From contig NC_043002.1 of assembly GCF_006345805.1 (NCBI RefSeq), positions 83,638,001 through 83,702,000 of the forward strand: a stretch of 64,000 bases of DNA, in the 5' to 3' direction. The notes under the pieces were generated by a model. The model made no database searches, was not told where the DNA came from, and saw only the letters and a list, made by a program, of their open reading frames with translations. Each line of letters starts with the position of its first letter. Positions within the stretch are counted from its first letter, which is position 1. Made by a program: the position numbers and the translations under genes. This DNA comes from Octopus sinensis. Its lineage: Eukaryota. Positions 5,215-37,362 of the stretch are shown piece after piece.

Positions 5215-6469
5215 CATGAAGCTTACCTGATATTGTGTACAACCAACGACGAAATAATGACTAAGATCCACTAAATGTAAAACGATATTTCGGAAGAAAT
5301 TATTAGAACAGAGATTATCTCGCAAGATACCACCATGTTGACAATAAAACTGCCAACGACAAAATAATCAAAATAACTAGATATTGTCAAAACTGTTTAT
5401 TTTGATTTGCAACATTGAGTCAAATACGTACATTGTAAAGGAAAGAACACTTGCTAAAACACTCCGATAGTACATAACTGGTTTATTTATTTTACTGAGG
5501 CATGAAAACAAGGCTGACGCCAGGGAGATTTGAATACGTCACATAGTGAACCGTAACTAAATAATGATAGATAACTCCTCTGCTGGTTCTAAGAATACTT
5601 GTTATAACGATGGATGTTAGAATATTTTGTGTACTGGACAAGATACTCTGGAATGTTTAGCTTAATACCACTACTTGTTTCTAGGGGTGTTTTCAGTGGG
5701 ATTCATTGCAATCCAGTCTTCCCTCACCCCGCTAGCATTCTCTGGTTGCTTAAGTGCTTTGTCCTTGCTCCTGTAGCTAGGCCATTAAAAAAACTGAAAA
5801 TGTTACACCCGTTCCTGCTTTGATTTCAAATCTTGAGGGAATCGGCTTTGAATTTCATCCAGAGGTTGATAAAAAAAATAATAAAAGTATCCTGAGTCTG
5901 TTTTGATCGACTGATTTCTCTCTGACATTGTGTGAACTTGTACCATTGTTGATTGTTATTCTTAGTCGTTTGAGTGGTCGCAAAATGAGTCTCTTGATGT
6001 GATGGTCAGCTAAGCTAAATGTAATATTATAAGTCTACCAATAACACTGATCATTTGCACTCTGTTCATAGAGTGCTGTTGTGGTTTAAGCCTAGGTCGA
6101 TCCTATCCCAGCAAACTTATGACCAAAGGTATTCTAGCCCTCTCTATTTCGTCTTTTTATGTGGTTATCCGAGACTATACTGCCCAGTGTATCTTTCTTT
6201 ATTCGAAAGGATAAGATGTCATTTGAGGTAAGTCGTGATGCTATTTCAAACAGGTCAAGCGACTACATAGAGACTCCTCTCACGGTCACCATTGTGTTTT
6301 AGCTAAAAGGAAAATTAAGAAATTAGTACCAAGACGCTTCGTAGGATTATGGGTTACCATTGATAGGATTTCGTATCCAGTCAAACGACTATATCAAAAG
6401 ACTAAGATGCATCTTGTTACTTAGAGCGTTTGTCTATGTTGCTTGATTTTCCAAGTTGGATCCTGTATG

Positions 6470-33775: not shown

Positions 33776-34102
33776 AAGACCTTGTTAATTTCAAAGACCC
33801 AGTTAATTCTTTGAAACGTTATTTTTCACTTGGTAGGGCCTATGGAACCGCGACCATTACAGGAATGATCAAAAGGCGAACAATTAAAAAACAACGCAGA
33901 GGTTTCAGAGAAAGCATCGAGATAGTTCTGGCCAAAAAGACCATGACGTCTGAGGTTCAGTAGAAAGCCATCAGGACACGGACCTAGACTTAATCAACCC
34001 AGATCTGGCCGTCTGGCTGAGGATGTGTGTTTCTTATGTCCCGCATTATGACAACGTATCTCGTCTTTGCGGGACTGCCTGAACAACATACCTCGCTGAC
34101 TG

Positions 34103-34551
34103 TATTTCTTTATTGCCTATAAGGACACACAGAGAGGGGACGAACAAGAACAGACAAGAAAGCACAAGTGGGGACAAAAAACATAAACGGATGAATGAAA
34201 TGAAATTATATAAAAATGAAGATGTAATGGCTACTACTCGACCCCACATCCGAGTAGTACCATTTTAACTATATTTTTACACTACTTTTAATCCAGCGTT
34301 TATCTGAATAATTATCTTAGTAAATGCAAAGCGGTTTCAGTTTTTCAAATTCCACCACAGGTGGCAACTGGTCGTATCTTATTTCTAACCCTAATGGGTT
34401 TACTTCGTCTCCAAAGTTTGCTTTCAATTTTTCATAGTTTTTCATGTCAATTAAAATGCATTCCATACCTGGGACTCTTATGTTTTTCCTCTAATTACTG
34501 CCTTCATCTTCCCTATTTTTGCTTCGATGGCTGCATTCGTCCAATAGTTAC
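34103..34551 (-). mobile_element. 5'-truncated ORF1-only L1/Tx1-like element (copy B)
   Basis: Minus-strand translation ...YWTNAAIEAKIGKMKAV...NYEKLKANFGDEVNPLGLEIRYDQLPPVVEFEKLKPLCIY* (stop 34317-34319), homologous to copy A. 3' end caataaagaaata. Flanked by atacctcgctgactg at 34088-34102 and 34552-34566. Confidence 0.75.
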
Positions 34552-34878
34552 ATACCTCGCTGACTGTAATTCTTTATTTTGGCACCTAGGCCATAACATA
34601 GAGGGTACAGCACAAGGACAGAGAGAACACCACAATGGGGACAAAAACATAAAACGAATGAAAAATGAAAGATGTATTAAAATAATAAAATTGATGATGA
34701 TGAAATGGCTGCATTGAGCCCAACTCTTATGCAGTACCATTTAACAGTTAAATTATACAAATTAACAAATCTTTCTTACACACTCTTTTTTTCTTTTAGC
34801 ATCGTTTTTTTTTTTTAATTTTGAAAGCCTATTTTTTTTTCTCTCAATTTTTATAAAATTTTACTTACTTTACTCTTT

Positions 34879-36560
34879 TTAACAGTTCAGTAAGCGTTTC
34901 AAATCTTCATACTCCACGACCGATGGTAATTCGTCGAATTCAATTTCGACCCCTAAATGGTCTATACTACTTCCGAACAGTTCTCTTAGTTTCTCGTATC
35001 TCTCCTTGTCAACTTGCTTTCTTCTGTTTATTTCTCCTGTGGCAGCCTTAATCATATGATTGATTTAAACTTCGTGATCTTCCGCTCGATTGCCGCACTT
35101 CTAGCATATGTACTTACTTACTAGTACTTGTAGCTACATTCACCCTGGGCGGGTTGAGTCGGCTTCTTCTACTCATGGAAGAAGTTTCGTGGGAATATGT
35201 GAATTTCACAAGCGGTCCCCAACAATCCCGCATGTGGAGACATCCTGTTTGCCGCAGATTGCCCGCTGACGCAGGGACAGAACGACCGAGGAGCCGCCGG
35301 TTGCCGAAGCAGACACTCCGAGGATTTTCACCTGAGCCCCGCCTGCCGGGTTGTGGCCCTAATACCACTCGGTGTCAGACCAATCCGCCTTGGGTGGCCC
35401 TACCAGGAACCGAAGTTCCCGACGTCATAGCTCTGACACGTCTAGCATATGTAACCATATGCCACTTGTTTTTTCTCTTTTTAACCAACGTTTGCTTCAA
35501 CGACGGACCTGGGATGTCCGAGCGAGTCTTTTCACTTGGCTCCTCTCTTGGTGTGCCAAAATAAACGTCAATGTCTAAGCCTTCCATACGTGTTGCAATG
35601 ATGTTTCTTGCTGCCACTCTACCTTCCATTGTTGATTCTGCTGGTGTCTCGAACCTGTTCCTCTTCTCCTCCATCTCAATCTCCTTCATCCTTTTCTGGC
35701 TCTCTGGTGGAGAACTCGCCAGTTCTTTCCTTTTCCTCCTATTCACGACGGTGAATGATTCCTCCATCTTTCTCCTTTTCCCGCACTACCACTTCGGTAC
35801 TCCGTTCTTCACTTTTCTGCTCCTTCTCTTCGTTTTCTTTCTGGGGCATCTTGCTTTCATGTACCCCTTTTGACCACTTAAGAAACATGTTAGTGGCCTT
35901 CCTTCCACTACTACTCTTAGTCTAACGTCTTCCGGGAGAATGATCTCCTCTGTGGTCTCGTACAAATCTTTTAGGCTCGCTGGCCATACCTCCATCAATT
36001 AACCTTTTTGGTTCTCGTAATCTTTAAGATTTTTACTTCATCCTCCATTCTGTGCATGACTGCTGCCACCAGCTATGCTTCCTTAATCTCGGTGGATACT
36101 CTGCCGATTCTCACTCTGGCGATGCGTTTGCCAGAGTAAGTTAGCAGAAGTACCCATTCTGGTGTCCTTATCAGCACAGTGGAGTAGTTTATTTCGTCTT
36201 CTTCGTTGCTAAACCTTACTTCCACTGTGCCGTACTTCCTTCCACGTGTATAAAATGTCGTAAGCCTCTTTACGTCCTTGAGGCACTCCTCTATTGCCTC
36301 TATTGGGGCAACCACTATCTTTTTAGAGGACGTAGATAGCGTTCTGTACACCACTGTCCCCTTTACCACATTGTTAATCAATTCTTGAGTCAGCCTCAAA
36401 CTGGCTTTCTATCAATTTACTGCCCTCCTTCCACTTTCTGGGCTCTATCTTAATTTCTCTTACTTCCAGGGCGTTGGTAGATACTCCTTTAATCGTGGCT
36501 GATGCGTAACTTCCAGCTGGTTCATTTTCCATCTCTCCTCTCTTCTCCACTTCACCCATA
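34879..36560 (-). pseudogene. Disrupted gag-like/ORF1 protein (~440 aa reconstructed)
   Basis: Fragments 36374-36577 (GSYASAT), 36073-36399, 35786-35998 (LRVVVEGRPLTCFLSGQKGYMKARCP, a decayed CCHC knuckle), 35454-35767 (basic/acidic linker) and 34879-35112 (YARSAAIERKI...RYEKLRELFGSSIDHLGVEIEFDELPSVVEYEDLKRLLNC*). Confidence 0.7.
35113..35440 (-). mobile_element. Non-autonomous RTE-derived insertion
   Basis: 13-bp TSD tctagcatatgta (35100-35112, 35441-35453). RTE-like 5'-UTR motif agagctatgacgtcgggaac..cctggtagggccaccca and an agtaagtaag tail. Confidence 0.7.
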
Positions 36561-37362
36561 ATTGGGGAAGAAAACAAATATCAAAACAGGCAAAAACAGC
36601 AACAATAGTTCAAAATTTAACAAATTTAACAGATCTTAGGTTCACCCACACGGGGAGACCTTCAATAAGTATAACAAGCAAACGACTTACTCAGAATCAC
36701 AAGTGATTTAACCAAAAATACTACCAACGCGAAAAAGAAAATACCTCGCTGACTGACATTACTGACTGACACAGTCTTACCTGGGGACGTCCGCCGCAAC
36801 AATATTGTAAGGTGTGAAGCATCCAGTGACATGAGATACAACACTGATATCGATACATGTATGCAGAAGTTTTTTTGTGTTTCTCAGTACAGACGAGTCC
36901 CCTCATGTTGTAACATACTTGCAATTCACCCCTGATGCTAATAAGTTACTCTATTGTCCCAACTCTTGTCGTAGAGATTCTTTTTTGTGTTTGCAATAGT
37001 TATATACTTCAGATGAAGGTGGAGTGTCAAACACCATAACTCTAATTTTTCTATACTTTAAAATCAATAACATGGAGTGGCTGGTGTTAGGAAGGGCATC
37101 CAACTGTAGAAACCATGTCAAATCAGGCTGGAACCTGGTGCAGCTCTCCGGCTTATCAGCTCCAGTCAAAATGCAAAGTGGTATAAACGCAAGCGTGGCT
37201 GTGTGGTGAGAAACTTGCTTCCCAACCACATGCTTCAATGTTCAGTATCACTACATAGCATCTTGGGCAAGTGTCTTCTACTTGAGCATGGAATTGGTAG
37301 ACAGAAACTGAAAGAACTTGTATATATATATATATATATATTGATTGATTCTAGTTTCAGTA

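Follow-up and report, generated by a model that had tools for sequence, protein, structure and literature searches.

ORF1-only LINE derivatives stacked at one base of a small LTR in Octopus sinensis, at a predicted transcription start and probably moved by an L1/Tx1-type helper

The window, i.e. the whole stretch of 64 000 nucleotides of Octopus sinensis DNA that was analysed (contig NC_043002.1, positions 83,638,001 to 83,702,000), contains a short repeat interrupted by two LINE-derived elements, referred to as A and B. Read along the minus strand, the order is 5′ part of the LTR, 15-bp duplication, A, 17-bp duplication, B, 17-bp duplication, and 3′ part of the LTR, with the following features:

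36756..36801, minus strand: 5′ part of the host LTR, beginning with TGTTG, about 30 bp shorter than in intact copies and without a TATA-like box
36741..36755, minus strand: upstream copy of the target-site duplication (15 bp), its first base being LTR position 77, in an initiator-like TCAGT
34567..36740, minus strand: element A, a full-length ORF1-only LINE derivative of 2174 bp including a nested insert; relatives have the same span
34879..36559, minus strand: ORF1 of A, interrupted by stop codons, frameshifts and the nested repeat
near 35846-35887, minus strand: decayed zinc knuckle in ORF1 of A, found as Pfam zf-CCHC in relatives
35100..35453, minus strand: repeat of younger age inside A; it has an (AGTA)n tail and a 13-bp duplication of its own (35100-35112 / 35441-35453)
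34550..34566, minus strand: middle duplication, common to both elements (15 bp for A, 17 bp for B)
34103..34549, minus strand: element B, a 5′-truncated copy of a sister subfamily (end of ORF1 and 3′ UTR)
34086..34102, minus strand: downstream copy of the target-site duplication (17 bp)
34032..34085, minus strand: 3′ part of the host LTR; a primer site does not follow it, nor does a polypurine tract precede the 5′ part

According to the original prediction, one 15-mer is repeated around two diverged elements. The 15-mer ATACCTCGCTGACTG was indeed found as exact copies at 34088, 34552 and 36741, and no further match with up to three mismatches is present in the window; the shuffle expectation of 1.09 applies to matches with up to three mismatches, whereas all three real copies are exact. 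The 3′ ends of A and B abut one and the same base, as had been proposed. A duplication of 15 bp was correct for A and had to be revised to 17 bp for B (34086-34102 = 34550-34566). The proposed protein homology is seen in 'YEKLRELFG...LGVEIEFDELPSVVEYEDLK' of A and 'YEKLKANFG...LGLEIRYDQLPPVVEFEKLK' of B, and the proposed divergence as DNA in 112 identities, 47 mismatches and 24 gaps over the shared protein-coding part. The homology is confined to the end of ORF1 and the 3′ UTR, and the homologous protein piece is the end of ORF1, not of a reverse transcriptase (RT). Tandem duplication, which had been discounted, does not fit two elements that are about 70% alike where they can be aligned and that each have closer relatives elsewhere. 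Both orders of insertion, A first or B first, yield duplications of 15 and 17 bp, and A and B are each about 85-89% like their nearest relatives. A repeat search of the whole window was dominated by microsatellites.

All three junctions of the stack are bridged by contigs of sequencing runs X2 and X9 (X2 being possibly not independent of the assembly, and the X9 contigs differing at 1-6 positions each), and the two outer junctions are also bridged by contigs of run X3; the stack is therefore not an assembly artefact. The flanks of the stack are uncovered in run X15. No empty-site joint was present among the joints listed in contigs of the other sequencing runs. The 15-mer is the duplicated target site of two LINE insertions that took place independently.

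Without its nested insert, A measures about 1.83 kb. Its T-rich 5′ UTR is followed by a single disrupted ORF, which includes a zinc knuckle, and then by a 3′ UTR that ends in ...AATAAAGAATTA, just past AATAAA and without poly(A). Relatives of A cover an equal span at 75-89% identity, and no match to ORF2 was found in the window. The ORF1 stop of B lies at 34317-34319, and the last 48 nt of B match the tail of a longer, ORF2-bearing element (locus L277, described below) at 42 of 48 positions. The nearest relative of B (86% identical) is a 1.7-kb ORF1-only copy from a stack on C1 that occupies this LTR site too.

The nature of the target was deduced from its other copies. The sequence ATACCTCGCTGACTG has 14 exact copies in the 2.7-Gb genome (4 for the reversed control), and each of the 11 copies found elsewhere in the genome belongs either to this LTR or to a stack at its insertion site, 6 of the 11 being filled. 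The host repeat is about 150 bp long, with about 410 first-look candidates in the genome. In seven cases it occurs as a pair around a short, non-coding interior of 351-703 bp; the pairs have TG...CA ends, a primer site behind the first copy and a polypurine tract before the second, and their 5-bp flanking duplications are exact at loci L002 and L070. As judged from this architecture, the host repeat is the LTR of a small, non-coding, TRIM-like LTR element, which we take to be of the Gypsy type. The copy in the window is accompanied by neither primer site nor polypurine tract and is therefore probably a solo LTR. L200, a different LTR that is also targeted, has a similar primer site and then a gag-like frame behind it, and on these features we presume that it, too, belongs to Gypsy. 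A search of the region and of four target loci against Rfam gave no RNA gene at the target, in line with the prediction that the site is no obvious rRNA, snRNA or tRNA gene, and targets of these three kinds were thereby ruled out. The 15-mer is present once in empty LTR copies (L002, L004 and L009) and so is not part of the element; family members in other LTRs are flanked by other duplications. A one-off event with random flanks elsewhere, which would have refuted the original prediction, is contradicted by reuse of the same site at many loci and by the presence of many stacks.

Within this LTR family, 22 right-hand halves were compared, and in 16 of them the break falls at position 76-78. 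Of these 16, 11 had been retrieved with a junction pattern, which makes them circular in this respect, 4 came from element searches (L025, L173, L187 and L202), and 1 is not an element. The junction pattern gave 27 matches (22 for the reversed control), 21 of the 27 being real by inspection; the pattern presupposes the site and is no proof of its position. Insertions were found in 5′ LTRs (at least 5), in 3′ LTRs (at least 8) and in solo LTRs, and were in the sense orientation in every inspected case. The duplications of decayed copies were called with a head-anchored finder. Some LTR elements carry an insertion in the 3′ LTR only (L019, L048, L064 and L111) and others in the 5′ LTR only (L140 and L141); where both LTRs were seen, the partner was empty or held a different stack. 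This distribution speaks for insertion into integrated DNA and against template switching by the RT of the LTR element. The nick is constant at one base in this family, although its distance from the TATA box ranges over 29-33 nt, and two filled copies (that of the window and L173) have no TATA box. At G000:C1:82,230,000-82,246,000 (L105-L107), the two LTRs of one small element carry different stacks, of at least four and at least three inserts, and an unrelated RT-coding element sits between these LTRs.

Relatives of A and B occupy about a dozen other target repeat families, which are mostly LTR-like, unrelated in sequence and entered in the sense orientation. Targets that begin with CAGTC, CTTTGG, AGTTC, GAGAAT or CTGTTA share a TATA distance of 29-33 nt. 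With one representative per target family, and with the window of 28-34 nt upstream of the nick and the representatives picked after looking, TATAWAWR was matched at six or more of eight positions in 9 of 15 families and at seven or more in 6 of 15, so that 6 of the 15 families failed the test at the lower threshold. Shuffles gave 2.8 and 0.5, respectively, with P values that overstate independence because several of the LTR families are related; other windows gave at most 4 and 2. Among nine control insertions of a SINE with the same tail, three reached 6/8 and none reached 7/8. In an out-of-sample family (V, an LTR-like repeat of about 700 bp), 6 of 15 loci are filled at an initiator-like site; of the nine empty loci, four, the copies aligning in full, have a perfect TATA box exactly 30 nt upstream, three have a TATA box (7-8 of 8) about 30 nt before a single initiator copy, and two have it at other distances. 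No TATA box was found in family W, the target of a more distant lineage. Families F6 and F8 have two sites each, 10-15 nt apart, and one copy (L294) is inserted in ORF2 of another LINE. In the mouse, the TATA box is placed at −32 to −29 of the start (PMC1779604, in the part available), and the nick is accordingly predicted to lie at, or one base before, the start of the LTR transcript. By TATA spacing only, the insertion base is thus the predicted transcription start of the LTR.

Members of the subfamily of A were found in about seven LTR families, and ORF2 copies that are 75-80% identical hit different LTR families. Target family nevertheless tracks lineage in both trees: 12 changes of target on the ORF2 tree (minimum 10, shuffles 18.5; 27 labelled tips) and 23 on the ORF1 tree (minimum 11, shuffles 44.5; 72 labelled tips, seven rows having been dropped as duplicates or partial), the trees having been computed with FastTree with target labels assigned by the authors, and such contrasts being inflated by kinship. 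Clustering of the upstream flanks with Blast linked 45 of 53, but chained them through SINE flanks; by eye, about 35 of the 53 begin LTR-like.

The extent of the ORF1-only class was examined with the best 60 further ORF1 matches out of 151 listed. In 35, a 3′ tail lies no more than 2.3 kb away and the intervening sequence contains no ORF2, no tail was detected in the other 25, and none of the 60 has an ORF2 directly behind ORF1. The query was itself ORF1-only, and the sample demonstrates a large ORF1-only clade rather than its proportion among all copies. At one locus (L179), a piece of ORF1 is followed by a stacked full-length element. Differences at codon positions 1, 2 and 3 number 727, 477 and 1806 among six ORF1 subfamilies, and 622, 509 and 968 between copies and their own subfamily. 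The excess at third positions between subfamilies indicates that ORF1 was functional and under purifying selection while the family spread. A is a member of a large ORF1-only LINE family and B a truncated copy from a sister subfamily. Since A and B contain neither endonuclease nor RT, they must have been moved in trans. The site-preferring, Tx1-type endonuclease of the original prediction is retained in so far as the insertions are independent, site-specific and attributable to L1/Tx1-type machinery, but it is not encoded by A or B.

Several further copies were observed alongside this family. An intact ORF1-only unit of 424 aa lies directly upstream of a near-intact full-length element (L225:225-6931); both have an identical 3′ tail and a 15-bp duplication and are inside a long, young repeat without a TATA box. 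The unit is possibly a second, independent ORF1-only derivative. A distinct ORF1-only subfamily (L154, L164 and L177) resides in a repeat that does not look like an LTR and has no clear TATA box, and positions 36820-36860 of the window resemble part of that repeat. An abundant SINE of about 230 bp carries the 3′ tail of the LINE and is found at untargeted sites, where its duplications measure about 12-18 bp (many loci, for example L105, in the C1 stack at 5887-6119, L147 and L175); it was probably moved by a Tx1-type RT.

Candidates for the source of the missing activities were found at the same LTR base. Locus L277 contains a decayed element of about 5.2 kb with ORF1 and ORF2 (endonuclease-RT) and a decayed duplication of about 15 bp, and ORF2 fragments at L208, L216 and L278 end at the same site. 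A fixed site in a multicopy target, together with a target-site duplication, was thus found for ORF2-bearing elements as well. No intact helper was found at the LTR site of the window. A related ORF2 (L226) is intact, with endonuclease, RT and zf-RVT domains; in Pfam, Exo_endo_phos and RVT_1 were recognised in L226 and L225, and zf-RVT in L226. The nearest solved structure to the ORF2 of L226 is human L1 ORF2p (E value 4e-69), and L277 and L290 match ORF2 of this type along its length. A homolog search with ORF2 returned almost only unnamed proteins, and neither this search nor the Atlas supplied a Tx1 name. Most 3′ tails have a small predicted hairpin before AATAAA (calculated with no shuffle control). 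The likely helper is a full-length element of the L1/Tx1 type that shares the 3′ tail; the lack of poly(A), the duplications of 14-17 bp and a sister family that targets (TC)n fit a Tx1-like element. That sister family (L076-L104) is large, young and ORF2-bearing, ends at (TC)n microsatellites at 25 of 29 loci, like Kibi, and includes copies with open frames of more than 1100 aa. Three ORF2-bearing copies (L100, L101 and L103) end at one identical site, which reads as decayed ORF1 of another LINE.

On this basis, A and B are separate ORF1-only copies at one fixed base of a Gypsy-type LTR, its predicted start, and were probably pasted there with endonuclease and RT supplied by a full-length helper able to cut at this sequence. 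The L1/Tx1-type machinery would bind the common 3′ tail of the ORF1-only RNA and paste it by target-primed reverse transcription, with the endonuclease recognising the LTR site by its sequence. Each insertion would leave the target intact, and stacks could form. Insertion in the sense orientation at the predicted start site would place the element, which putatively lacks a promoter of its own, under the LTR promoter; when helper lineages came to use further LTR families, transcription and spread would have continued in the lineages that cut at start sites. In R1-type elements, read-through RNA pairs with the target, and such pairing might add precision here.

In the most serious alternative, position would determine the site: TBP, or the Pol II pre-initiation complex assembled at the TATA box, would tether ORF1p or ORF2p, and the nick would be placed about 31 nt downstream with weak sequence preference. 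The common TATA distance of 29-33 nt in targets of unrelated sequence speaks for such tethering, as do the occurrence of one ORF1 subfamily, and of the ORF2 copies that are 75-80% identical, in different LTR families and the conservation of ORF1 in a lineage without ORF2. The spread of the subfamily of A over several LTR families would require several helpers or would be better fitted by a positional mechanism. A precedent is offered by TRE5-A of Dictyostelium, a non-LTR element of the APE type with an ORF1p that may bind subunits of TFIIIB, but the insertion windows of TRE5 are tens of bases wide (PMC5006619, in the sections available). Within the LTR family of the window, moreover, the nick stays on the same base when the TATA distance varies, although the indels may post-date insertion; two filled copies have no TATA box; target family tracks lineage; and inspection of the sampled flanks, with the genes unannotated, revealed no copy at an evident promoter of a host gene. 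Sequence-reading endonucleases are favoured by the lineage tracking, the constant nick and the copies without TATA box, and the positional choice of site is considered unlikely. The broader proposal, that an octopus LINE lineage finds Pol II start sites through the TATA complex, parasitises the promoters of at least 12 LTR families and has kept ORF1 as a tether in its satellites, is likewise doubtful; if true, it would constitute a Pol II counterpart of TRE5-A and Ty3.

Two other explanations were given much less weight. Minus strong-stop DNA of the LTR element, terminating at the transcription start, might have jumped to a co-packaged ORF1-only RNA and back, the RT of the LTR element thus mimicking a duplication. 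Such a template switch accounts for the position at the predicted start regardless of sequence, for the sense orientation and for the lack of poly(A). Under this route, however, both LTRs should carry an identical insert, and inserts were seen in single LTRs or, on C1, as different stacks; the 5′-truncated copies B and L296 have clean duplications of 16-17 bp, within the range of the tail-sharing SINE at untargeted sites; and endonuclease-bearing LINEs occupy the same site. The single-LTR hits, clean duplications and endonuclease-bearing LINEs largely refute this route, which is very improbable. A local event that happened only once, be it tandem duplication, nesting by chance or misassembly, would explain the proximity of A and B and nothing beyond; it is refuted by reuse of the site at many loci, by the divergence of A and B, with closer relatives elsewhere, and by the junctions bridged in other runs, and its probability is negligible.

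The preferred reading, sequence-directed insertion by a helper, combines properties of several known systems. HAL1 elements are poly(A)-tailed and not known to be target-specific, and were reportedly first described by Bao and Jurka in 2010. The octopus family resembles HAL1 (half-L1) of mammals, a non-autonomous LINE derivative that encodes only ORF1p (PMC5753468, in the part available): its full-length unit consists of ORF1 and UTRs without ORF2 at many loci, and its ORF1 was under selection during the spread, as seen in the codon-position counts above. It differs from HAL1 in that it has no poly(A), keeps the 3′ tail of the helper and is targeted. HAL1 proper descends from mammalian L1, whereas the sole ORF1 homolog found by homolog search was in Octopus bimaculoides, and we infer an origin independent of HAL1. 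Among Tx1-clade LINEs, sequence-specific insertion into multicopy targets is described for Tx1 in Tx1D of Xenopus, Keno in U2 snRNA genes and Kibi in (TC)n (PMC4494074, main text); these targets are multicopy, as in the octopus, but of other classes, and the octopus genome also has the (TC)n-targeting relative. Crocodilian Tx1 families, among them Tx1-8_Crp and Tx1-4_AMi, prefer LTR retrotransposons, the main text giving no position inside the LTR (Kojima 2015, PMC4494074); the octopus site, in contrast, is defined to the base, lies about 31 nt behind a TATA box in many repeat families, and is used mainly by passengers that code for ORF1. TRE5-A and Ty3 of yeast insert at a set distance from a promoter, their targets being Pol III tRNA genes with insertion upstream in a window of positions (PMC5006619, same sections), whereas the octopus targets are TATA-type promoters of transposons with a nick fixed to the base. 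Within the literature searched (Repbase Reports and most subscription papers lying outside it), no report of ORF1-only targeted LINEs in cephalopods was found; nor was one found of LINEs that target LTR start sites, the supplements of Kojima 2015, which possibly give the LTR position, also lying outside the search. The available text of an O. vulgaris repeat paper (PMC13282606) lists L1-Tx1 families, with no occurrence of 'target' or 'nested'. LTR-targeting Tx1 elements and ORF1-only LINEs are thus already known separately; their combination and the start-site rule were not found in print.

The helper-based reading would imply a chain of parasites in three tiers: L1/Tx1-type helpers exploit LTR retrotransposons at their predicted start sites and are in turn exploited by ORF1-only elements, and the LTR promoters are disrupted, and probably used, by the insertions. 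It would also explain a class of repeats that, having no RT, would be missed by automatic annotation. Related endonucleases, each with a different target at the same promoter position, would form a natural series for the study of specificity change in APE endonucleases and for the question of whether sequence or transcription-factor tethering selects the site; both questions bear on programmable LINE insertion.

In many 5′ UTRs of the family, GTAAGT and a pyrimidine run just upstream of the ATG resemble a retained intron (around 36690-36560 on the minus strand in the window, and in element heads). The 341-bp repeat nested in A is presumably RTE-like and is a 5′-truncated copy of a young repeat whose copies are 94-96% identical to each other. 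It is present at very high depth in runs X2, X3 and X9 and is nearly absent from X15; this contrast in depth suggests a recent burst.
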